A stretch of DNA of 45,013 bases, from sequence record OZ035811.1. One strand, given 5' to 3'. Within the stretch, counting starts at the first letter, position 1. Each line of letters starts with the position of its first letter. Source of the stretch: Dhillonvirus LM40P1. Below the pieces are notes generated by a model. The model did not search any database and was not told the DNA's origin. It worked only from the letters and a program-made list of their open reading frames with translations. The position numbers were made by a program, and so were the translations under genes. Positions 5,826-40,345 of the stretch are shown one piece after another.

Positions 5826-5854
5826 AATATATTGCAACCAATTAGCCAATGCAA
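5826..5854 (-). promoter_or_regulatory. sigma70-like promoter (TTGCAT-17-TATATT) with ATTGGTTGCA repeats
   Basis: -35/-10 hexamers at 17 bp spacing on minus strand, about 30 bp upstream of the 5795 start; same architecture as four other leftward promoters. Confidence 0.5.
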
Positions 5855-5944
5855 GCAAATTTTGTGATTATTTTTATCACTGATAATATTAAGGGCGTGA
5901 AGTCGAGCGGGTGGCCCGCTCTGCCACAATCCCTGGGGGATGTT

Positions 5945-6678: not shown

Positions 6679-6746
6679 GCGAGCGTGAAAAATTAGGGTA
6701 ACATTAAAAGCACTGGGCGATTGCTCTCTACTCAAAGGATAAACTT

Positions 6747-7868
6747 ATGTCTTTAACAGTGTTCCAGCGTAAACTCGTCACCGCGGTTACGCAAATGATC
6801 CCCGACAACTTGAACGTCTTCAACGCTGCCGCTAACGGCGCGGTCGTTCTCGGTACTGGCGAAGTGCTGAAAGATGTTGTCGAGAAGATGTCTGTAGGTC
6901 TGATCGCCAACCTGGTGTCTGACCGTAACGCATATGCCCCGGTTGGTACTCCTGCCGATGCGAAAGTGCTGGCGCGTATGCTGACCAACTCCGTTAACCT
7001 GTCCGCGAAAGTCGGTCCTGTTGCAATCACCAAAGCTATGATGGCTAAAATCGAAACCAACGTTAACAGCGTTGCGGCTGAGATTGCGGCACAGGCTACT
7101 CAAGCTATCTTGCTGCACTACCTGAAAGCGGGTATCGGCGCTGGTAAAGCTGCGATCGACTCTAACGCTGCGGCGAAATATACCCAACCGGCGCGCGTTG
7201 ACGGTGTAGGCGGTCGTACCTTCCCGACCCTGGCAGACTTCCCGCTGGCGGCGGCTAAGTTCGGCGATCAGGCATCTCTGATTAAGTCCTGGTTTATGGA
7301 CGGTGTGACCTGGGCTAACTTCATTGCATATCAGGCGCTGCCTTCTGCTGAGCAGGTGTTCGCGATCGGCGACCTTCAGGTAATGGGTGATGGCTTAGGC
7401 CGCCGCTTTATTATCTCCGATGCCGCTGCCGATGCAATGGGCGCTGGCAAAATGCTGGGTCTTGTTCCGGGCGCGGTAGCAGTTACTACCAACGGTCTGG
7501 ATATGCTGGCGCAGGAGCGTGGTGGTAACGAGAACATCGAGCGCTGGTGGCAGGGTGAGTTTGACTTTAACGTCGCTGTTAAAGGCTATCGCATGACCGC
7601 GGCAGCACGCGCAGGCGTTGAAGGCGTCCGTTCCTTCAAACTGGCTGATATTACCAATACCAGTAACTGGGAACTGGATCAGGGCCAGGTCGATAACGCG
7701 CCGTACACTACCTACGACGTTGGCGGCACGGATACTGAAGAGGGATCTACCACTTCACTGAAAGAGAAAGGTCGTCGTCGTAAGCAGGACGCGCAGGCCG
7801 TACCGACCCGCCACATCAAGGAAACTGCCGGTGTGTTGGTAACTCTGACGGCAACCACCGCATCTTAA
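6747..7868 (+). CDS. major capsid protein
   Basis: 373 aa ORF with strong AAAGGA SD, flanked by terminators on both sides, positioned after scaffold gene. Confidence 0.7.
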   Translation: MSLTVFQRKLVTAVTQMIPDNLNVFNAAANGAVVLGTGEVLKDVVEKMSVGLIANLVSDRNAYAPVGTPADAKVLARMLTNSVNLSAKVGPVAITKAMMAKIETNVNSVAAEIAAQATQAILLHYLKAGIGAGKAAIDSNAAAKYTQPARVDGVGGRTFPTLADFPLAAAKFGDQASLIKSWFMDGVTWANFIAYQALPSAEQVFAIGDLQVMGDGLGRRFIISDAAADAMGAGKMLGLVPGAVAVTTNGLDMLAQERGGNENIERWWQGEFDFNVAVKGYRMTAAARAGVEGVRSFKLADITNTSNWELDQGQVDNAPYTTYDVGGTDTEEGSTTSLKEKGRRRKQDAQAVPTRHIKETAGVLVTLTATTAS

Positions 7869-11121: not shown

Positions 11122-11435
11122 TTGAGGCGGCGCGACGCTTCTATGGTCCGCCGCCACCGTCCGAAGACCTTGCCGCTAGTTTATGGGGTGCGGCCCCCGA
11201 AGATATTTGTCCGCCAGTTGCATTATGGCCTGATAACGTACAGGTCGTTGCCGTTTTCACTGACTGCTCAACGCAGTGGCGCACCGGTTTTAACGGCGCA
11301 TACGGCATCGACTACGGCGTGCTGGAATGGCTATTTAAAATGCACGGCATCGAAAATGAGAAGCGAGCTTTTAAAGATATCAAGTTAATGGAGCGTATTG
11401 CACTCGACGAAATTGCAGCACAACAGGCCGGGTAA
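10759..11435 (+). CDS. tail assembly chaperone frameshift fusion product (lambda GT-like)
   Basis: -1 frame continuation to TAA at 11433-11435 with protein-like composition; the same-frame ORF after the stop is Arg-rich junk. Confidence 0.5.
11112..11118 (+). other. programmed -1 ribosomal frameshift slippery heptamer A AAA AAC
   Basis: 0-frame codons GAA AAA AAC TAA; -1 frame is open from 11112 to 11435 and encodes a sensible protein. Confidence 0.55.
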
Positions 11436-11448
11436 TTCCGGCCTTTTT
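11426..11448 (+). terminator. rho-independent terminator
   Basis: GGCCGG...CCGGCC hairpin followed by TTTTT. Confidence 0.55.
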
Positions 11449-11452
11449 CATA

Positions 11453-11576
11453 GCGGGACGTCCTGCTTGTCCCGTTTTTGTCCCGCTGTCCCGCCCCGCC
11501 AAAAACTGCATACCTATTCAGAAATACTGCATAAAACCAAAACGGGACAAAAACGGGACAAGCAGGACGTCCCGCC
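11453..11576. repeat. inverted repeat pair (about 32 bp arms) built from TTGTCCCG/CGGGACAA iterons and GGGACGTCC
   Basis: 11453-11484 is the reverse complement of 11543-11576. Confidence 0.7.
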
Positions 11577-11599
11577 TCAAAAGTGCATATCTATGCAGT

Positions 11600-11772
11600 T
11601 TTCATGCATAAAACGAACGGGACAAAAACGGGACAAACTGCAAGCGGGACAGAGCGGGACGTCCCGCCGTCCCTGCCAGAGCTGCCGCGGGTTTCAGCCG
11701 ATCGGGACAGGCGGGACAAAGCCCAGTCTTTCAGACTAGACGGGGGTCAATGGCCCCCTCCGTCTGAGACTG
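11600..11772 (+). repeat. non-coding module copy 1: TGCATAAAAC, CGGGACAA iterons, GGGACGTCCCGCC palindrome, GCGGGTTT box, conserved hairpin
   Basis: About 170 bp with roughly 80 percent identity by eye to 39959-40131; iterons at 11 bp spacing. Confidence 0.7.
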
Positions 11773-11839
11773 AATAAGGTTGGTTGCAAAATGACTGATA
11801 CAATACAAACGGCAACTTGCATAAAAAGGGGACTGCATA

Positions 11840-14482
11840 ATGGCAGATCAAGCGGCAGGCATCACGCTAAAGGCGGATGTTGCACAAATCAGAACGGCGA
11901 ATACTGTGCTTGATTCATTCGCACAGAAATCCGAGAACACAGAAAACAAGGTTAAGAAATTAAACAACACCCTCGGCAACTCTAAAAAGGTGACGAGTGA
12001 TGCCGCTGGCGGAATGGAAAAGCTGGCGAACGAATCGCATCGAGCAGCCGATGGCATGACGAAACAGGAGCGACTCGCCAACCGGTTAGGCATGTCGACC
12101 AAAAACCTGGGCTTTGCCTCGCGTAACGCCGCATTCCAGTTACAGGATATAGCGGTTACGCTTGAGATGGGTATGCCGGTGCACCGCGTCATGCTTCAGC
12201 AGTTACCACAGCTTACGGGGGCGTTCGGTGGGTTTGGTAACACGCTGCGTTATGTTGCTGGCTTCCTCGGCCCAGTAGGGATCGGAATTGCAGCACTAAC
12301 GGCAACGTTAGGCGTAGGGGTGGCAATTACGTCACGTGCCGAAAACCAGGTAGCAGCGCTTAACAAGACGCTGGCGCTATCCGGTAACATTTCCGGCCTA
12401 ACTGCAAACCAGATCCTGGTGCTATCCGAGAACGCCGAGCGCATGGGCGGGTCGTTCCGCAAGACGCGTGACACAATCCAGGCGCTGGCGGCGGCGGGTG
12501 TGAAAGCGGGTGCAGACTTCGGCACGCTGGCGAAAGTGGTGAATGATTTTGCGAAGGCGTCCAGCCAGCCGATCGAGGATGTGGTCGCGGCGGTGGCGAA
12601 GCTGTCTACCGACCCGGTAGGTGGCTTGCGAGCATTGGCTGATAAGTATCACGTAGTAAACGAAGCGCAGATCCAGCAGGTGCAGTCACTAGTGACGGCT
12701 GGTCGCGAAACCGAAGCGGTGGCGCTGGCTAACAAAACAGCCGCAGCGTCGTTTACCACTATGACCAATGAGATCAAGTCCAACATGGGTACGCTTGAGC
12801 GGTCGATGAACGTCGTTACATCGGCAGCTAAATCTATGTGGGATGCCATCCTGGATGTTGGACGCGCGCAGTCCTCGAATGAGTCAGAGATGAAAGCGCG
12901 TGAATCATTGCAGCGACTGACCACGGCTTACTATGCCGAGATGAAAGCGGTAAACGCTGCCGGTGGGGTGATGACCGAAGCGCAGAAAGCGCGTATTAAC
13001 ATGCTTTACAGCGAACTGGTCGCCCAGGAGAAGGTGGTGGCGTCGCTCACCATGCGCAACCGTGCCGAGCGGGACAACGCCAGCGCCGCGGACGCAGCAG
13101 CAAAGGCGAACGAAGAGGCAAACCGCACCGCCCGCGACCGCGCTGCGTTTGAGAAGGAGTACGCAACCAACGCGAAGAGGCGCGCCGACGAGATCGCCCG
13201 CCTCAATTTGCTTAATAAGCGCGGCGTGATTGACGAGAAAGAGCTTGCCGAGGCGGTGAAGCAGGTAAACGAGCGTTACAAAGACCCCGCCCCGAAGAAG
13301 GCCGCCGCTGTTCGAGTCGATGCCGGGCTGAAAATGCTGGAAGTAGCACGGAGCGAACTGGCACAGCTTCGTGAGTCTGGAAAGCAGATCGAAGCCAACT
13401 CCTCGACGCAGACCCGAACGCAACGCGCGCAAGCGGCCCTGAACAAGCTGATCGCGGATAATGAGCAGTTAATCGCCGCAAGCAAAGAAAGAGCACTAAC
13501 GGCAGCCGAAAAGCAGCAGATGGTCGAATTCGGACGCGTGAAGGAAGTACGCGAGCAGATCGTCGAAGAAGCCAAATTGCTGGACGCGAAAGAGAAGCAG
13601 GTCAAGGCGCACGCGCAGATCGACGCCTTCGTTAAGAACCAGAACGCCGAGCTAAAAGCCACCGCGGCGGGCTATGCGCTTTCCACTCGCGAAGCGGCAA
13701 ACCTGCGTGAAGAATTGCAGCTAATTGACCGCCTGAAGCGGGTGGGCGCTAGTGATACCGATATTGATCTGGCGGTGTCTAAACTGCGCGAAGTGCAGGA
13801 AGCACAGACCGGTGCTAACGCCTCACTATGGGATGGGTTCAGCCGTGGGCTTAAGGATAGCGTGGATGAAATGGGTAACGGCTATACGCAGATGGTATCG
13901 GCAACGAAATTTACATTCGGCGCTATGATGAACACGATGAATGAATTTTTCGAGACTGGTAAATTCAACGCGAAGGAAATGATTAAATCCATCCTGAGCG
14001 AATTTATCAAGCTGGCTACCTCGCAGGCGTTCAAGTCCGTAATCAACGCATTCGGCGGTGACGGTGGGAAGAATGGTCTGTTCGGGGCAATCTTCTCCGG
14101 TCTGACGAAGAATGCCGACGGTGGAGCGTACGCTGGCGGCAACCTGTCCGCATATTCCGGTCAGATCGTAAGCCAGCCAACCTTTTTCAATTACGGCGTT
14201 AAGGCGTTCGCTAACGGCGCGGGATTGATGGGTGAGGCTGGGCCGGAGGCCATCATGCCGCTGAAGCGCGGGCCGGACGGTAAACTGGGCGTTGCCGCAA
14301 GTGGGGCTGGTGGTGGTATCGTCGTGACAACGAACGTGAACATGGGTACAGGGCAGGCTGACACCAGCGTTAAAGGGACCGACCCGCGAATGGGGCAGGT
14401 ATTCGGCAAGCAGATCACGGAAGCGGTTAAGGCCGAAATCGTGAAAGCGACTAAACCAGGTGGAGTACTTTACAAACGATGA
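11840..14482 (+). CDS. tail tape measure protein
   Basis: 880 aa, Ala-rich, extended coiled-coil-type central region, Gly-rich C-terminal part; position after chaperone pair. Confidence 0.8.
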   Translation: MADQAAGITLKADVAQIRTANTVLDSFAQKSENTENKVKKLNNTLGNSKKVTSDAAGGMEKLANESHRAADGMTKQERLANRLGMSTKNLGFASRNAAFQLQDIAVTLEMGMPVHRVMLQQLPQLTGAFGGFGNTLRYVAGFLGPVGIGIAALTATLGVGVAITSRAENQVAALNKTLALSGNISGLTANQILVLSENAERMGGSFRKTRDTIQALAAAGVKAGADFGTLAKVVNDFAKASSQPIEDVVAAVAKLSTDPVGGLRALADKYHVVNEAQIQQVQSLVTAGRETEAVALANKTAAASFTTMTNEIKSNMGTLERSMNVVTSAAKSMWDAILDVGRAQSSNESEMKARESLQRLTTAYYAEMKAVNAAGGVMTEAQKARINMLYSELVAQEKVVASLTMRNRAERDNASAADAAAKANEEANRTARDRAAFEKEYATNAKRRADEIARLNLLNKRGVIDEKELAEAVKQVNERYKDPAPKKAAAVRVDAGLKMLEVARSELAQLRESGKQIEANSSTQTRTQRAQAALNKLIADNEQLIAASKERALTAAEKQQMVEFGRVKEVREQIVEEAKLLDAKEKQVKAHAQIDAFVKNQNAELKATAAGYALSTREAANLREELQLIDRLKRVGASDTDIDLAVSKLREVQEAQTGANASLWDGFSRGLKDSVDEMGNGYTQMVSATKFTFGAMMNTMNEFFETGKFNAKEMIKSILSEFIKLATSQAFKSVINAFGGDGGKNGLFGAIFSGLTKNADGGAYAGGNLSAYSGQIVSQPTFFNYGVKAFANGAGLMGEAGPEAIMPLKRGPDGKLGVAASGAGGGIVVTTNVNMGTGQADTSVKGTDPRMGQVFGKQITEAVKAEIVKATKPGGVLYKR

Positions 14483-21946: not shown

Positions 21947-21975
21947 AATATAGTGCAACCAATACGTGATTGCAA
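21947..21975 (-). promoter_or_regulatory. sigma70-like promoter (TTGCAA-17-TATATT) with ATTGGTTGCA repeats
   Basis: Minus strand reads ATTGGTTGCAATCACGTATTGGTTGCACTATATT, about 30 bp upstream of the lipoprotein start. Confidence 0.55.
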
Positions 21976-21998
21976 CCAATTTATGAGGAGTTTTCGCT

Positions 21999-26330: not shown

Positions 26331-26359
26331 AATATAGTGCAACCAAATACGGATTGCAA
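26331..26359 (-). promoter_or_regulatory. sigma70-like promoter (TTGCAA-17-TATATT) with ATTGGTTGCA repeats
   Basis: Minus strand ATTGGTTGCAATCCGTATTTGGTTGCACTATATT. Confidence 0.55.
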
Positions 26360-26363
26360 CCAA

Positions 26364-26585
26364 TTATTTTAATTCCTCAATCAAATTGGCACGGACAATA
26401 CGGGCCGAGAAGGCATCGCACACAAGATGGCAACGCGCCGTCATGACAAGCCAGCCGGTTAGGTCACGGCCTAGCAATTGCTCCGGGCGGCTTACCCGCA
26501 ATACTTTATTTCCAGGGAAAACCTGGTAACGTTTAATGATCTCATCCACGACGCGCGGACTGCGATCGACGACTAAGATATTCAT
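26364..26585 (-). CDS. hypothetical protein
   Basis: ATG at 26585 with AAGGAG SD; 73 aa. Confidence 0.45.
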   Translation of the reverse strand: MNILVVDRSPRVVDEIIKRYQVFPGNKVLRVSRPEQLLGRDLTGWLVMTARCHLVCDAFSARIVRANLIEELK

Positions 26586-27791: not shown

Positions 27792-27820
27792 AATATAATG
27801 CAACCAATCTCGCAATGCAA
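27792..27820 (-). promoter_or_regulatory. sigma70-like promoter (TTGCAT-17-TATATT) with ATTGGTTGCA repeats
   Basis: Minus strand ATTGGTTGCATTGCGAGATTGGTTGCATTATATT. Confidence 0.55.
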
Positions 27821-27825
27821 CCAAT

Positions 27826-28149
27826 TTATTCGAAGAAATTTGGGTCGCTCATCACATCCACTAGATAAAGGTTGTTAAGGCGGTTGCCGTAATGGCCTGG
27901 CGTGCGCTGACGGCACACAACAGCGTAACCAGGGGGGATGGTATTTCCGGTCGCCAGAATCCACGCCACGCGCGCGCCGTTTAGTGATTTACCGTTGTAT
28001 TCTATGCGGGTGCCGCCATCTGCAGTGTTAAGGCTGCCAATCTTCTGACCGGTAGAATTGAGACGGATAACACCAGTCTGGCTATCGTAATTAAACAGTT
28101 GTTTGGTCAGTGCTACCGAAAAATCAATTGGATCAAAGATAGTGTTCAT
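27826..28149 (-). CDS. HNH endonuclease-like protein (possibly degenerate)
   Basis: Segment ARVAWILATGNTIPPGYAVV...GHYGNRLNNL resembles the HRLxW...IPxG...DHxNGN...NL pattern of phage HNH proteins. Confidence 0.4.
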   Translation of the reverse strand: MNTIFDPIDFSVALTKQLFNYDSQTGVIRLNSTGQKIGSLNTADGGTRIEYNGKSLNGARVAWILATGNTIPPGYAVVCRQRTPGHYGNRLNNLYLVDVMSDPNFFE

Positions 28150-33551: not shown

Positions 33552-34271
33552 TTAGCGGCGTCGACGTTTACGTGGTGCTTCGTCTTCGTCATCGTCGTCA
33601 TCTTCATCACGGCGGCGCTTAGACTTGCGCGGTTTTTCATCTTCATCATCGTCGTCACGACGTTTTGACTTTTTGGATTTACGCGGTGCTTCGTCTTCGT
33701 CATCATCCAGGTCGTCGTCAGAGCAATATGCACCGCCGCCGCCACCGAAGGAATCCCCATCATCACGGAAGCGCATACCCAGCAGACCACAGCCTAAGCC
33801 TTTGCCGTTGGTATTGTTCCAGGCCCAAATATCTAAGGAAACGTTGCAATAGCAACCGGAATAGATTTCCTTCCCTTCGATTTCGTCGCCGTCGATGGTC
33901 AGACCCTGCTCCGTCTGCTTCTCGCCTTCGGAAGTCTGGATGATCGGCTGTTTGAATGATTTAGCGTTGATATACAGCTTACCTTCAAACTCTTCCGTTA
34001 CTTCTTCACGCTCATCTCCATCTCGAACGGCACATTCTTTCGAATCCTGCGCGTAGTGGCGGTCCATCCACTTATCGGCGTTCTTCTCAGACTTCAGTTT
34101 TTCGGTGAGCACTGCGCGTGCCGCCGCTTCCACTTTGTCCACCTGCGGATCTTCTTTATCAAGAATAATCACCGCACGATATGCCGGTTTTTGTCCATCC
34201 TGTTTAGGGGTATCACGCTCCCAAATTTTCAGGAAGCATACACGTACATTTTTCAGGTTGACTTTAGCCAT
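33552..34271 (-). CDS. putative ssDNA-binding protein with repetitive charged C-terminal tail
   Basis: ATG at 34271 with GAGGAA SD; T7 gp2.5-like overall layout; three tandem DDDEDEAPRKSKRRR-type units at C-terminus. Confidence 0.4.
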   Translation of the reverse strand: MAKVNLKNVRVCFLKIWERDTPKQDGQKPAYRAVIILDKEDPQVDKVEAAARAVLTEKLKSEKNADKWMDRHYAQDSKECAVRDGDEREEVTEEFEGKLYINAKSFKQPIIQTSEGEKQTEQGLTIDGDEIEGKEIYSGCYCNVSLDIWAWNNTNGKGLGCGLLGMRFRDDGDSFGGGGGAYCSDDDLDDDEDEAPRKSKKSKRRDDDDEDEKPRKSKRRRDEDDDDDEDEAPRKRRRR

Positions 34272-36505: not shown

Positions 36506-37009
36506 TTAGTCTTCCAGTTCGAAATAGGTTTCGACAATTTCTTTCAGTTCGGTGTGGAAGTCTTCAACGTCGTCATCTTCCAGCTTAGCCACAGTCTTGA
36601 TTTCGAACGATTCCAGCAGGTCGTCAAATTCGTCGTTCGCGTCGTCATCGTCGCCGCCTGCAATGATTGCCGCGTATTGTGCAATTTCATCGCGCATTTC
36701 TTTCAGCGGATCGGCGTCTTTCTTAGCCTTCACTTTGCCCTTGCCTTTGGCTGGCTTTTCTTCCGGTTCGTCTTCGTCGTCGTCATCTTCTACGACTTCT
36801 TTTTTCGCCTTGCCCTTAGCCGTGGACTTCTTAGCAGGTTTCTTATCTTCCTGCTCGTCATCTTCGTCTTTGGCTTCTTCTTTCTTAGCCTTAGACGGTT
36901 TCTTATCTTCCTGCTTACCAACGGCAGCGCCCTGGGTTTCGTAATGTTTAGCGATGGTTTCCAGTGCTACTACGCCGCGAGTAATCAGATTCAGGATTTG
37001 CTCAAACAT
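36506..37009 (-). CDS. highly charged low-complexity early protein
   Basis: ATG at 37009 with GGAGAC SD; first gene of leftward early operon; K/E/D-rich with acidic C-terminal half. Confidence 0.5.
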   Translation of the reverse strand: MFEQILNLITRGVVALETIAKHYETQGAAVGKQEDKKPSKAKKEEAKDEDDEQEDKKPAKKSTAKGKAKKEVVEDDDDEDEPEEKPAKGKGKVKAKKDADPLKEMRDEIAQYAAIIAGGDDDDANDEFDDLLESFEIKTVAKLEDDDVEDFHTELKEIVETYFELED

Positions 37010-37262: not shown

Positions 37263-37556
37263 GTGAATACGACTAAATTGAATGCTTTGTTAGATATGGT
37301 TGAGAATGGTGTTGATGTTGGTGCGGCCCGCGACGCTATTAACGTTGCGTTCAAAGACCTGGCCTACAAACTGGAATTACTGAACGGTACGGCAGCGAGC
37401 AAGCTGCAAAAGCATAACGAAGAAATGGAAGAATACAAAAAGCAGGTTATCAGACTGCGCGAAGAGGGTAAGTCCTGGGCAATGATTGCCGAGTTAACGG
37501 GTATTAATCAGAGCACCGTTCGTTCTTGGGTACGCAATACTAAAACTGCTAAGTAA
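37263..37556 (+). CDS. HTH DNA-binding protein (candidate transcription regulator)
   Basis: GTG start with GGAGAC SD; C-terminal helix-turn-helix-like segment SWAMIAELTGINQSTVRSW. Confidence 0.5.
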   Translation: MNTTKLNALLDMVENGVDVGAARDAINVAFKDLAYKLELLNGTAASKLQKHNEEMEEYKKQVIRLREEGKSWAMIAELTGINQSTVRSWVRNTKTAK

Positions 37557-37568
37557 GGAATTGAGACA

Positions 37569-39833
37569 ATGAGAAATATAGAATTTGCGATCACACCCCC
37601 CGCTAAGAAAGGCGAATCTGCGGTAGCTCATAACCAGTCCATGACTACCGCCGAGTTTTTCGAATTTATCCAGGATGCACCGGTAGTGTCGTCAGTTTGC
37701 ATTAACGGTACTGAAGATAAAAAAGAATATGCGCGACGTAAGCGTAAAGGCGACGGCATTGTGGCTACAACCGCCGATGGCACGCGTAAAAAGACTGGCG
37801 TGGTTAGCCGCTCGATCCTGTTCTTCGACCTGGACCGTGCTGACAACCGCACACTTACCCGCTGCCGCAGGGCTTTCCGCAAGTCCGGCCTGGAATATGT
37901 CTACCACACCACCACCGGCGACCGCCACCCGTTGAAAGACGGCAAGCGCTGTGTGCGTTTCCTGGTGCTGACAAACAAGCCAGTTCCGGCGGAAGACCTG
38001 GGCCGCGCGCAGGCTGCACTGCTTGAGCAACTGGGTCTTACCGACGCGGGCTTTGATGACTGCTCGAAAGACACAAACCGCCTTATGTACCTGCCCCACC
38101 AGCAGGCTAAGGTCGAGTGCCATGAAGGTAAACGCGCTAACGTGCGTCGTCTGCTTCGCCTGGCTGACAAGATGGGTATTGAGCAGGAAACGTTTCGCCG
38201 TGAACTGGTGCAGGGCGACGACGAGCAGATGAACGGCATCCTCGACTGGTGTTTCCAGGCTGGTTTTGAGCCGTTACCATCCGGGCGCGGTTATGAAGTA
38301 CCGTGCCCAAACGAACATCTGCACTCTGGTGAAGGGTCTACCGCTATCATGCTTAAGGATGGCGAGATTCGTTTCAAATGTATGCACACCGGCAACGGAT
38401 GCTGTTCTGAACTGAACAAACACCAACACCTGGCGCTGCGAATGATTGGTATCCCGGATATTTATAACGTGGAGCCACACAACATGTCACGCAAACAGAT
38501 CTCGGCAATCCTGCCGGGTCTGGACGACGAAGAAGTGGACGCGCAGTACGAGCACATGGTTGACCTGGTGGGTGAAGGTGAGGATTATGCGTCCTGTACT
38601 GACGCAGACCTGGAAGACGAACCGACGGCGTTGTTCTCGAAGCACGACCCGATCATCGAAGGTCTGATTAACTTCAAATCGACCTGGTACGCAGCGGGTG
38701 AGTCGAACATTGGTAAGTCCTTCTTTGTCATGGGTCAGATGGCTGCCGTTGCCGCTGGCATCCCGTTCGGCGGCGCGAAGGTCGTCCAGTCCCATTGCTT
38801 CTACTTCGATGCGGAAGGTGGCGAGGCGTCACTGCAACGTAAAGAAGCGTTGCAGATTAAATATGAGCACGACCTGGACAAGCTGCACATTATCGACCTT
38901 CAGGCACGCGGCTGGGATATTACGAGCAAGTCCGGCCTGCGTGAAGTCATCAGCTTTATCAACCGCACCGCGGATGGTGAGCCGGTCGGCCTGGTGGCGT
39001 TCGACTCCCTTAACCAGACCGTAGCGCTGCGTTCGGCTGACGCCAAACCGTTCGATGAGAACAACGCCAGCGATATGGGTGAGATTGTCAAGGCGCTGAA
39101 AGCCATTGCGGAAAACACAGGCGGCAGTGCGGGCGTCATCCACCACCCGGCGAAGGGTGCAAACGGCAGCAGATCCCCGCGTGGGTCCGGTGCGCTACAT
39201 GGCGCGGTGGATTCTGCATTCTTCCTGGAACAGCCAGACGAGAATCAGCCAGGCCAGCTTAACCTCTATCATGAGAAAGCCCGTAACGGCGTGAAACAGG
39301 GTCCGCGCGGCTTCGTGCTACTGAAGTGCAAAGTGTCCATTAACGAGCGCAAGTCCGACACGTTCGAAGCGCACCAGTCCACTAACCCTGGTCCAGACTT
39401 CGGCGATGTAGTTGCCGGTTGGGACGTCAAGCCAATCCAGGCCACCCCGCGTGATGAGACTCTGTACCTTGTACCGGTAGCTCTGGCCCCGTTCGCTATC
39501 GAACAGGCGAAGGCCGCGGGCAAGCAGGCTGTTAAGGAAGAAAACCCCGCCGGTCCGCGCAATGAAAAAGAGAAAGTGCTTTACGCAGCGCTCGAAGCGT
39601 TGATGGAAGAGAATCCGGGACACCATGGCTTCAGCAAATCGGCAATCGTCCGCAAAGCCGGACTGGCGAAAGGTGGCACATCGACGAAGCCAATAGACGA
39701 TATGCGTGAGCGCGGAATCATCGGCTTTTACAAAGACCCGGACACCGGGGCCATTTACGGGTCGTCGAATCTGGTTATCAATTCACAAATACCTATGCAA
39801 TTGACGGCGACGGATGATGATTTGAAAGATTAA
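37569..39833 (+). CDS. primase-helicase (N-terminal primase-like domain, zinc motif, RecA-type ATPase)
   Basis: Walker A GESNIGKS, Walker B-like VGLVAFDSL, Cys/His cluster CPNEHLH...CMHTGNGC. Confidence 0.65.
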   Translation: MRNIEFAITPPAKKGESAVAHNQSMTTAEFFEFIQDAPVVSSVCINGTEDKKEYARRKRKGDGIVATTADGTRKKTGVVSRSILFFDLDRADNRTLTRCRRAFRKSGLEYVYHTTTGDRHPLKDGKRCVRFLVLTNKPVPAEDLGRAQAALLEQLGLTDAGFDDCSKDTNRLMYLPHQQAKVECHEGKRANVRRLLRLADKMGIEQETFRRELVQGDDEQMNGILDWCFQAGFEPLPSGRGYEVPCPNEHLHSGEGSTAIMLKDGEIRFKCMHTGNGCCSELNKHQHLALRMIGIPDIYNVEPHNMSRKQISAILPGLDDEEVDAQYEHMVDLVGEGEDYASCTDADLEDEPTALFSKHDPIIEGLINFKSTWYAAGESNIGKSFFVMGQMAAVAAGIPFGGAKVVQSHCFYFDAEGGEASLQRKEALQIKYEHDLDKLHIIDLQARGWDITSKSGLREVISFINRTADGEPVGLVAFDSLNQTVALRSADAKPFDENNASDMGEIVKALKAIAENTGGSAGVIHHPAKGANGSRSPRGSGALHGAVDSAFFLEQPDENQPGQLNLYHEKARNGVKQGPRGFVLLKCKVSINERKSDTFEAHQSTNPGPDFGDVVAGWDVKPIQATPRDETLYLVPVALAPFAIEQAKAAGKQAVKEENPAGPRNEKEKVLYAALEALMEENPGHHGFSKSAIVRKAGLAKGGTSTKPIDDMRERGIIGFYKDPDTGAIYGSSNLVINSQIPMQLTATDDDLKD

Positions 39834-39842
39834 ATTTTGCGC

Positions 39843-39921
39843 GCATTGGTTGCCAATATGGTTAATTTGTGCGCGCATTGGTTGCCAGATTGGGTATTAA
39901 ATCTATATCGCATTGGTTGCC
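39843..39921 (+). repeat. three direct repeats of GCATTGGTTGCC at 32-35 bp spacing
   Basis: Copies at 39843-39854, 39875-39886, 39910-39921, each followed by an A/T-rich hexamer. Confidence 0.75.
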
Positions 39922-39958
39922 GTGTAGTGCTAAATAAGTGAATAGTTATGCAAAATAA

Positions 39959-40131
39959 GTGCATAAAACAAACGGGACAAAAACGGGACAAACGACAAAC
40001 GGGACAAAACGGGACGTCCCGCCGTCCCCCTCAGGAGTGGCGCGGGTTTGAGGCAAACGGGACAAGCGGGACAGACCACAGTCTTTCAGACTAGACGGGG
40101 GGTATTGTCCCCCCTCCGTCTGAGACTGCAT
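39959..40131 (+). repeat. non-coding module copy 2: TGCATAAAAC, CGGGACAA iterons, GGGACGTCCCGCC palindrome, GCGGGTTT box, conserved hairpin
   Basis: Matches 11600-11772 in element order; hairpin stem conserved while loop differs (tattgt versus tcaatgg). Confidence 0.7.
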
Positions 40132-40288
40132 AAAATCTCTGGTTGCATAATCAACGGCAGCATAGTGAAAAATGCGGCGGGGGTAGATCTCGGCAACCAA
40201 TGCGGGTTGAAGAGTGGAGAGTGAAAAATGCAGTTTGGTAATGACAACTGATAGCGATCAGCATTTTCATGCGCGTGATTAATATTGG

Positions 40289-40317
40289 TTGCATTCGTCC
40301 TGCCAGGGTGTTAGATT
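40289..40317 (+). promoter_or_regulatory. sigma70-like promoter (TTGCAT-17-TAGATT) flanked by ATTGGTTGCA motifs
   Basis: ATTGGTTGCATtcgtcctgccagggtgTTAGATTGGTTGCAC about 30 bp upstream of the 40346 gene. Confidence 0.5.
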
Positions 40318-40345
40318 GGTTGCACACCAACATGAGGACTGAACG

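Follow-up and report, generated by a model that had tools for sequence, protein, structure and literature searches.

Background

The satellite phage P4 carries two separated clusters of the same repeat, ori and crr, which hold it in direct and inverted orientation and are both needed in cis. Its alpha protein is a single polypeptide with primase, helicase and a C-terminal winged helix that binds the short origin repeats. In the IncQ plasmid RSF1010, the origin oriV has iterons beside GC-rich and AT-rich segments, and the hairpins ssiA and ssiB are exposed by the RepA helicase and recognized by a primase resembling archaeo-eukaryotic primases (AEP). The archaeal system of the Sulfolobus plasmid pRN1 encodes a protein with AEP primase, helicase and winged helix (ORF904), and a stem-loop 3' of its gene is needed for replication; the same arrangement has been predicted for the phages BIP-1/BPP-1 (PMC4234260). 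SPP1, a 44-kb virulent pac-type siphophage of Bacillus, has one origin (oriL) in its initiator gene and a second (oriR) that interrupts the late virion-assembly genes. Both are similarly organized, with direct repeats as well as an AT-rich unwinding element; oriR is bracketed by transcription signals, and the initiator bound there has been proposed to stall forks and to trigger the switch from theta to sigma replication, with concatemer synthesis (PMC6316719). Here we analyze the sequence record OZ035811.1 of Dhillonvirus LM40P1 (45,013 nucleotides, nt; the whole stretch is referred to as the window), the complete 45-kb genome of an HK578-like virulent siphophage of E. coli. The genome contains two copies, 28 kb apart, of a non-coding module that consists of short repeats (boxes) followed by a long hairpin. 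Copy 2 follows the gene for a primase-helicase; copy 1 precedes the tape-measure gene. We hold the chances to be about evenly balanced that the module is a cis-acting replication site of the iteron and stem-loop type—an origin or an origin-like element. Dhillonviruses are common model and therapy-candidate coliphages, represented in the BASEL collection and among the SECphi phages.

Anatomy of the two copies

Copy 1 belongs to a larger region A (11437-11839), and copy 2 lies in region B (39834-40345). The elements of copy 1 are the following.

11453-11575, no strand assigned: extra box array found in copy 1 only, an inverted repeat of CGGGACA boxes and GGACGTCC (repeat search, arms 100% complementary)
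11584-11614, + strand: left edge, with the ARG-box-like palindrome TGCATATCTATGCA at 11584-11597 and the half-site TGCATAAAAC at 11605-11614 (pattern count)
11618-11673, no strand assigned: box (iteron) array with direct GGGAC at 11619, 11630, 11646 and 11656 (boxes kept in all copies)
11674-11702, + strand: central spacer of 29 nt, holding GCGGGTTT at 11687-11694
11703-11718, + strand: two direct CGGGACA boxes, 9 nt apart, directly 5' of the hairpin
11724-11772, no strand assigned: long imperfect hairpin (fold z = -3.6)
11773-11816, + strand: AT-rich stretch 11773-11809 (70% A+T) with TGATACAAT at 11796-11804, then CGGCAAC at 11810-11816; by composition a candidate unwinding element

Copy 2 has the same parts.

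39939-40161, + strand: module copy 2, beginning 106 nt past the primase-helicase stop codon
39939-39952: ARG-box-like palindrome
39960-39969: TGCATAAAAC half-site
39973-40028: direct and inverted boxes
40042-40049: spacer motif GCGGGTTT
40058-40073: two boxes before the hairpin
40079-40128: hairpin
40129-40154: AT-rich stretch
40155-40161: CGGCAGC

A first-pass annotation, made from the letters of the window alone, had claimed two copies with a common order of elements, and both claims are borne out. A repeat search returns a direct repeat of 178 nt (11581-11758 versus 39936-40113, 81% identity). Across 11581-11800 and 39936-40150, ~220 nt can be aligned with 81-84% identity, and in a MAFFT alignment (84% column identity) the homology between regions A and B extends ~30-45 nt beyond the hairpin. 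With blastn, copy 1 of the window matches copy 2 of the near-identical phage Ioannina (98% identity to the window) at E = 8e-57. The internal spacing is identical as well: in both copies GGGAC boxes follow each other at 11, 16 and 10 nt (start-to-start), succeeded by inverted GTCCC, a 29-30-nt spacer with GCGGGTTT, and two boxes 9 nt apart. The repeat spacing of 11 base pairs (bp) noted earlier applies to the first box pair only, the remaining distances being 16, 10, 8 and 9 nt, such that phasing had been over-emphasized. Likewise, the hairpin stands but its terminal GAGACTG does not mark the end of the module, which continues via the AT-rich stretch to a conserved CGGCARC. A GGGACGTCCCGCC palindrome, listed earlier as a shared element and likewise given too much weight, is lineage-specific: most Dhillonviruses have GGGACAGCACCCC(T)GTCCC in its place, and a scan of IMG/VR with GGGACGTCCCGNNGTCCC matched 7 stretches only. 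The conserved, presumably functional unit is the GGGAC/GTCCC box in either orientation.

Boxes are concentrated in the two regions, which hold 15 of the 18 CGGGACA sites of the window (6.3 +/- 2.3 are expected in the window as a whole). Counted as GGGAC, there are 10 forward and 6 inverted boxes in 11445-11718, and 6 forward and 2 inverted boxes in 39973-40073. In copy 1 the GGGAC at 11656 and the inverted box at 11661-11665 make up the palindrome GGGACGTCCC, with another inverted box at 11669-11673. The A+T content rises from 34-39% in the box arrays to 69-70% past the hairpins, over 37 and 26 bp. Among the A copies of Dhillonviruses, TGATACAAT and CGGCAAC are invariant. Region A contains in addition a perfect 33-nt inverted repeat (11453-11485 / 11543-11575, with 57 nt between the arms) that is found in this region only; enclosed by its arms are an ARG-box-like palindrome at 11507-11520 and, at 11528-11537, a TGCATAAAAC half-site. 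The arrangement of this inverted repeat varies among Dhillonviruses.

The module is not explained by a coding sequence, as had been stated before. Open reading frames do exist at 11398-11739 and 11583-11777, but both are disrupted by 1-nt indels in nearly all other copies, and a conserved small reading frame spanning the module was rejected on account of this loss of frame.

Conservation and age of the duplication

The module is present in all 158 matching phage records, each with at least one place covering at least 80% of the query. Among the records listed there are two places each, the sole exception being a partial 28.7-kb record. A scan of IMG/VR with the hairpin arm returned 33 stretches on 17 contigs, with two stretches per contig in all but one of the complete-length contigs; the same scan with CGGGACGTCCCGCC matched mostly unrelated GC-rich contigs. 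Across 16 genomes, the A copies of different genomes are 81% identical to each other and the B copies 83%, compared to 69% between A and B within a genome. The higher identity of A with A and of B with B indicates that both copies are kept by selection. Judged by these identities, the duplication is evidently old and both of its copies are under selection. Strong concerted evolution of the copies was considered and rejected, as A and B share 69.2% within a genome versus 66.5% between genomes.

The second copy 5' of the tape-measure gene occurs in all Dhillonviruses, in a divergent lineage (L012) and in phage eiAU. Cornellvirus has one copy only, beside the primase-helicase gene, and none before the tape-measure gene. 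Since the single copy of Cornellvirus follows the primase-helicase gene, and since the module is found at this position across genera, copy 2 evidently occupies the ancestral position and copy 1 is an old duplicate.

A constant scaffold with lineage-specific boxes

Relatives of the primase-helicase with 38-79% amino-acid identity were collected from phage records, IMG/VR and metagenome assemblies. Most of those fetched have the same architecture, in the same orientation, directly after the stop codon of the gene. The module is found directly 3' of an orthologous primase-helicase gene in Dhillonvirus, Cornellvirus, Eiauvirus and at least 8 further lineages, and the genes beyond it differ. First in the shared order is a TGAATAGTTATGCA-type palindrome or a pair of them at a distance of 21 nt, followed by two to four direct 7-bp boxes and inverted boxes. 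It continues with a spacer of ~27-29 nt, two to three boxes (directly 5' of the hairpin in all lineages), the long imperfect hairpin, an AT-rich stretch and, in every lineage, CGGCARC. It ends with a near-consensus sigma-70 promoter, after which comes the next gene. The spacer holds GGGTTT in most lineages, including the Cornellvirus-type modules; in some it is AT-rich and resembles an IHF site (AAATCAATAGCTTA in lineage L179, related sequences in eiAU and L012). In Jerseyvirus and Kagunavirus, only the helicase part of the protein is common, the gene order is different, and no module was found beside the gene. On this distribution the module is, by all appearances, much older than the genus Dhillonvirus, and it is at home beside the primase-helicase gene.

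The sequence of the box differs from one lineage to another.

Dhillonvirus: CGGGACA
Eiauvirus (eiAU): CGCCCCG
Cornellvirus: GGGGAGA
Other lineages: CGGACAA, TCCGACA, AGGGATA, GGGGATR, CTCGCAA, TTCCGCACA

Within a genome, the type of box is matched between the copies 28 kb apart (GGGAC in Dhillonvirus, CGCCCCG in eiAU). Lineage-specific boxes in a constant scaffold are the pattern that would be expected of iterons and an initiator that co-evolve. In line with an iteron-type origin, several copies of a short repeat are clustered in a non-coding stretch. A reading of the boxes as GGA motifs in RNA of the CsrA type was rejected, as the boxes of eiAU do not contain GGA. We also note a tentative likeness of TTATGCAGA / TTATGCACC to a DnaA box, at 8 of 9 positions.

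The hairpin

The hairpins at 11724-11772 and 40079-40128 have z-scores of -3.6 and -4.1 relative to shuffled sequences. In an alignment of 21 copies from the Dhillonvirus lineage, the 5' arm is invariant save single substitutions and the loop is variable. The top stem is G-rich with a bulged T. The segment AGTCT has two possible partners: pairing with an adjacent AGACT gives a mini-hairpin, and pairing with the AGACT at the 3' end closes the long stem. A bulged hairpin (15-25 bp; 40-70 nt) is found at the same relative place in at least 10 lineages with changed sequence, and z-scores range from -2.2 to -5.1 in the hairpins of 9 of 10 lineages.

For 14 diverse copies, RNAalifold predicts the 5' mini-hairpin, with compensatory changes at 4 of the 8 predicted pairs (3 of the 5 pairs of the mini-hairpin). 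In this alignment, pairing is possible in 90% of cells versus 74.9 +/- 2.4% in shuffles, and the covariation score is 0.39 versus 0.16; none of 500 shuffles reaches either value, and controls with slid positions collapse. The 5-nt segment at the start of the hairpin (AGTCT, TCATC, TCCTC or TCTCC, depending on the lineage) co-varies with its two complements, the adjacent one and the one at the far 3' end, and the joint change of all three indicates that two alternative conformations are conserved. Selection on the structure of the hairpin had been suggested from a comparison of the two copies; it emerges much stronger here, with a shape that persists in more than 10 lineages despite differences in sequence, and with statistically supported covariation.

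Nearly every pair is of the Watson-Crick type, with 0-3 G-U among 15-26 pairs, and in 12 of the 14 hairpins the fold of the minus strand is equal or superior. The rarity of G-U pairs together with the folding of both strands is easier to reconcile with an inverted repeat acting at the level of DNA than with an RNA under selection on a single strand. The arms are not symmetric and their bulges are conserved, which favors a single-strand fold over a symmetric duplex operator; a symmetric operator for a dimeric protein was rejected for the same reason. An intrinsic terminator was also rejected: neither hairpin, followed by GAATAAGG and GCATAAAA, respectively, is among the sites of a terminator scan that required a T run.

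Candidate proteins for reading the boxes

Two adjacent genes provide candidates for a protein that binds the boxes.

37569-39833, + strand: primase-helicase gene, 754 aa, candidate initiator (Pfam, PHROG, AlphaFold/Foldseek)
37263-37556, + strand: gene for a small helix-turn-helix (HTH) protein, directly 5' of the primase-helicase gene; alternative candidate for box binder or regulator (Pfam HTH_23 / Sigma70_r4_2)

The first of these is annotated as helicase-primase in PHROG. The AlphaFold model of its N-terminus (pLDDT 86.5) has an AEP PrimPol fold with a Cys/His cluster, and the best Foldseek match of this model is the PrimPol of cyanophage S-2L (6zp9, E = 1.7e-5), followed by LigD and Prim-PolC. 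The helicase domain matches Pfam AAA_25 (RecA-type, RepA/DnaB-like, E = 1.3e-20). When the PDB was searched by sequence with the complete protein, the sole match was that of the helicase domain to RSF1010 RepA (1g8y), a weak one with E = 0.54. The C-terminal domain (approximately residues 668-740, DNA 39570-39788) is predicted as a winged helix with the order H-beta-H-H-beta-wing-beta and pLDDT 80-87. The best structural matches of its model are all winged-helix DNA-binding domains (MarR, histone H1, ORC, DnaD, LexA).

Divergence within the primase-helicase is greatest in the C-terminal ~75-105 residues, which track the type of box rather than the phylogeny of the core. For example, the relatives L182 and PhiSTP1 have an identity of 90% in the core and 54-55% in the C-terminus, and their boxes differ; L182 and L178 have an identity of 78% in the core and 78-83% in the C-terminus, and they share their box. 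When C-terminal identity is divided by core identity, the mean over 43 pairs is 0.95 where the box is shared and 0.66 where it differs. As query of the protein search, the full-length sequence was used in place of the 125-aa C-terminus, which on its own retrieved 2 fragments only.

At the position of the HTH gene, the Cornellvirus-type lineages have an unrelated HTH protein of the Cro/C1 type. As the small HTH protein is not orthologous across the lineages that bear the module, it is the poorer candidate for reading a shared scaffold. In all likelihood the boxes are read by the primase-helicase through its winged-helix C-terminus, and not by the HTH protein encoded at 37263-37556.

ARG-box-like palindromes and the word CGGCARC

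The pattern TGMATNNNNATKCA occurs three times in the window (11507-11520, 11584-11597 and 39939-39952), always inside one of the two regions, compared to 0.19 expected occurrences. The palindromes stand in a 21-nt register with a second full site or a half-site. In the window, each module has one full palindrome and one half-site at this spacing; in copy 1, TGCATAAAAC is located 21 nt (start-to-start) downstream of TGCATATCTATGCA. An ArgR operator was taken to consist of two imperfect palindromes TGAAT-N4-ATTCA, 21 bp apart from center to center, and both the register and the sequence resemble the ArgR operator of E. coli carAB. The corresponding Cornellvirus-type sequence TGTGAATAGTTATGCAGAAAAAGTGAATAGTTATTC (L130, 17024-17066) has 27 of 39 positions in common with the E. 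coli sequence that lies 10 nt upstream of carA. The host protein ArgR may bind the module.

CGGCARC, which follows the hairpin, is also the most over-represented word of the genome, with CGGCAGC, CGGCAAC and AACGGCA as the top three 7-mers. The window has 102 copies, distributed over both strands and all frames (for example at 11810-11816, 40155-40161 and 40191-40197). Dinucleotide shuffles lead one to expect 21.9 +/- 4.6 copies and synonymous-codon shuffles 35.0 +/- 4.9—an excess of ~4.7-fold and ~3-fold, respectively. The copies are spaced more evenly than random (coefficient of variation 0.68), and no strand polarity was seen around the modules. Every phage with an orthologous AEP-primase-helicase has 18-29 copies per 10 kb, and there is no excess in Jerseyvirus, Kagunavirus and E. 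coli (7.5-12 per 10 kb). It is an attractive guess that CGGCARC may be the recognition site of the primase. A sigma-54 promoter at GGCAGC was rejected because of wrong spacing. In a GC-rich relative (L175), six tandem copies of GGCAGCAT come after the module and represent an expanded form of CGGCAGC.

Genome setting

On the + strand the genes are ordered as terminase, head, tail tube and chaperones, followed by region A, the tape-measure gene (ATG at 11840) and the tail-tip genes. Then come a leftward block of replication and modification genes, the rightward HTH and primase-helicase genes, region B, small genes, lysis genes and the wrap-around to the terminase. The left boundary of region A, directly 3' of the tail-chaperone reading frame, is a terminator.

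11425-11449, + strand: intrinsic terminator GGCCGG-gtaatt-CCGGCC with T run (terminator scan; annotated as terminator in phage WF5505, too)

The duplication had already been noticed: the GenBank record of the Sodalis phage SO-1 from 2009 flags both copies, annotating a "region A" and a "region B" as direct, inverted and palindromic repeats that are mutually similar. In the literature on regions A and B of SO-1, on origins and repeats of Dhillonviruses and on repeats of eiAU, we found no study of the function of these regions.

Outside the two modules, the genome has a promoter-like family built from two tandem copies of ATTGGTTGCA. Members are located on the minus strand at 5826-5863, 21947-21984, 26331-26368 and 27792-27829, and on the plus strand at 39847-39920 and 40284-40323. 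The first ATTGGTTGCA supplies a -35 element TTGCAA/T, followed after 17 nt by TATAnT. These promoters drive the genes of leftward orientation and those beyond region B. The motif is kept in eiAU, and Cornellvirus-like phages have TGTTGGCTGC at the same places. It may be a shared operator for an early regulator. A further observation concerns runs of GAC/GAT/GAA codons (TCGTCATCGTC on the + strand) at 33567-33720 and 36542-36915 in minus-strand genes. They encode long acidic tracts in an Enc34-type single-stranded DNA-binding protein and in a 206-aa protein beside the early promoter region.

A candidate replication site and its described counterparts

The first-pass annotation had left three options for the module: origins of replication, an array to which a phage regulator binds, and an RNA with structure. 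The comparative evidence favors a combination of the first two and disfavors the third. As a cis-acting replication site, the module would work as follows. The winged helix of a tri-functional protein—AEP primase, RepA/DnaB-like helicase and winged helix—would bind the lineage-specific 7-bp boxes, and the protein would oligomerize on the direct and inverted arrays. Host factors may assist at the ARG-box-like palindromes and, in some lineages, at the IHF-like site. The complex would then open the neighboring inverted repeat and the AT-rich stretch, and the protein would load its own helicase ring and prime nearby, perhaps at CGGCARC. Copy 2 would be the ancestral origin, and copy 1 a second origin or a partner site that is bound by the initiator. 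Of the descriptive features of an iteron origin, clustered repeats and proximity to a putative initiator gene are seen at the module, with an adjacent AT-rich stretch as a candidate unwinding element.

The arrangement resembles pRN1: a gene for a small DNA-binding protein, then a large AEP/helicase/winged-helix protein, then a stem-loop, with the HTH gene, the primase-helicase gene and the hairpin as counterparts. The protein combines an AEP prim-pol with a predicted C-terminal winged helix, as in a pRN1-type protein, with winged-helix matches that are weak in E-value, and a conserved large stem-loop stands immediately 3' of the replication gene. Differences are that pRN1 has a superfamily 3 helicase, a stem-loop of ~100 nt and no iterons, as compared to the RecA-type AAA_25/RepA-like helicase, a hairpin of ~49 nt and 8-16 boxes here; there is no detectable sequence homology, and Dhillonvirus has a second copy. 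As the helicase belongs to AAA_25 and not to superfamily 3, the module would work like the pRN1 class without being a member of it. P4 alpha shares the fusion of primase, helicase and repeat-binding winged helix in one polypeptide, but it has a Toprim primase and a superfamily 3 helicase, such that the proteins are homologous in general fold classes only. The P4 repeats are TGTTCACC, their clusters lie 4.5 kb apart versus 28 kb here, and there is no conserved hairpin.

With SPP1 the phage would share two origin-type sequences, one at the candidate initiator gene and the other within the late genes. In SPP1, however, gp38 is a separate origin-binding protein that acts with a loader and a DnaB-type helicase, the host DnaG primes, and oriL is located inside the gene and not downstream of it; no hairpin has been described, and the sequences are unrelated. 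By analogy, SPP1 would be the closest precedent for the second copy, together with P4 crr. RSF1010 oriV is similar in having iterons beside GC-rich and AT-rich segments and hairpins that are exposed by a helicase and recognized by an AEP-like primase. It differs in using three proteins (RepC, RepA and RepB') in place of one fused protein, 20-bp iterons, and two hairpins on opposite strands in place of one per module.

Several observations weigh against a replication site. The relatives L169-L173 have no module beside the primase-helicase gene, and in L175 the module (6740-6980) is ~1.5 kb away from the gene with opposite-strand genes inserted between. No structural match of the winged helix reaches a Foldseek E-value of 0.001 or less. 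Further, the C-terminal codons of the primase-helicase abut copy 2, such that recombination would move both, and the correlation between winged helix and box is confounded to this extent. Linkage to the gene cannot account for the matching of boxes, since copy 1, 28 kb from the gene, has the genus-specific box, too. The candidate unwinding stretches are short (26-37 bp), moderately AT-rich and without repeated 13-mers. The GC skew of the window tracks gene orientation only; it is uninformative on origins and lends them no support. There is no terminator between the primase-helicase gene and copy 2, from which it follows that the early transcript reads into copy 2 and the hairpin is also made as RNA. 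Copy 1 is located between a terminator and the tape-measure gene, with an extended -10-like element, before a gene cluster that needs a promoter, and a transcriptional role is equally natural at this position.

A wider version of the same idea is doubtful. It would make the module representative of a widespread, hitherto unrecognized class of phage origins in which one protein performs all steps of initiation: an iteron code read via a swappable winged helix, opening of a bistable hairpin, loading of its own helicase, and AEP priming at a genome-selected CGGCARC. The copy in the tail cluster would couple replication to late expression or to the theta-to-sigma switch, and ArgR would serve as an architectural cofactor.

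Alternative explanations

It is rather unlikely that the general function of the module is to control transcription, as an element placed where two rightward gene clusters begin; copy 1 makes the best case for this. On this view, a phage regulator bound to the boxes would activate, repress or physically block RNA polymerase. Copy 2 and its hairpin would separate the early operon (HTH and primase-helicase genes) from later genes, and copy 1 would separate the head and tail-tube genes from the tape-measure and tail-tip genes, whose promoter it would supply or regulate. Both copies indeed precede + strand gene clusters, and copy 1 follows a strong terminator and has the conserved -10-like element TGATACAAT 36 nt before the tape-measure ATG. 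In L012 and eiAU, moreover, an opposite-strand gene is inserted between the chaperones and the module (2865-3245 in L012; 42365-42718 in the eiAU record L131), driven by a double-ATTGGTTGCA promoter. The tape-measure cluster is not reached by simple read-through in these phages and needs a promoter of its own. The layout of a 7-bp repeat with a 4-bp A-rich spacer is the architecture of sites for winged-helix activators such as PhoB, which the boxes resemble. A sigma-70 promoter scan, however, found no promoter in either region, and the -10-like element is not kept in eiAU. Near-consensus sigma-70 promoters (TTGACA-17-TATTGT, TTGCAA-17-TAATAT) are found 70-200 bp beyond copy 2 and beyond all Cornellvirus-type modules, too distant and too strong to need an upstream activator, and Cornellvirus has no module before the tape-measure gene to begin with. 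A regulator site would have no need of the conserved bulged hairpin, the host-factor-like sites and CGGCARC, and the neighboring small HTH protein lacks orthology between lineages that have the scaffold in common. The two roles are compatible, as origins are often activated by transcription.

A functional RNA is improbable. The hairpin, viewed as two adjacent stem-loops that can also adopt a long form, would act in transcripts, namely 3' in the mRNA of the primase-helicase and in the leader of that of the tape-measure gene, either as a site for processing or stabilization by RNase III, as a terminator/antiterminator switch, or as an element that modifies RNA polymerase like HK022 put. That copy 2 is necessarily transcribed as the 3' untranslated region of the early operon speaks for this explanation, as do the covariation and the switch-like choice between two mutually exclusive pairings. 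In size, the stem (~20 bp, interrupted by internal loops) would suit RNase III as a substrate; in several lineages the hairpin is followed by a U-rich run, UUAUUCAUUU. An Rfam scan at a permissive threshold, on the other hand, returned no credible family but only miRNA and Trp-leader models below their gathering scores; the spurious matches to plant and animal miRNAs are due to the 33-nt inverted repeat of region A. The hairpin neither shows the features of a cis-acting antitermination RNA (lambda nut, HK022 put) nor belongs to a curated RNA family. The scarcity of G-U pairs, the equal or better folding of the minus strand and the absence of both hairpins from the terminator-scan sites all tell against RNA, and boxes in both orientations, their helical phasing and the host-factor-like DNA sites would be left without explanation. 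The hairpin of copy 1, finally, is upstream of the only promoter-like element. We regard it as highly improbable that the module serves another DNA transaction or is a selfish repeat, be it a pac site, an ArgR/PepA-assisted recombination site similar to ColE1 cer, or a functionless mobile repeat. Lambda cosB and P1 pac are arrays of short repeats with a bend site between, a layout that the module also fits; ArgR is an accessory factor at ColE1 cer, the left edge resembles a double ARG box, and the module has been copied to a second locus at least once. Yet neither copy adjoins the terminase genes (9-1966), direct recombination sites 28 kb apart would delete half of the genome, and there is no recombinase gene nearby. 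Every complete genome checked has exactly two copies at fixed positions, and since A and B are each orthologous (81-83%) and only 69% alike within a genome, recent mobility does not account for them.

Implications

Should the module not be a replication site, it would still be the most conserved non-coding feature of these genomes, and likely a regulatory hub. If it is one, a testable origin would become available for a clade of siphophages that comprises Dhillonvirus, Eiauvirus, Cornellvirus and many uncultured relatives. The matched pairs of winged helix and box would allow the evolution of initiator-origin recognition to be studied and orthogonal replicons to be built. The primase-helicase with its stem-loop origin would be the counterpart, in viruses of bacteria, of the archaeal pRN1 system, and the copy at the tail genes would be a Gram-negative parallel to oriR of SPP1. 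The excess of CGGCARC could show which templates a phage AEP primase is specific for.

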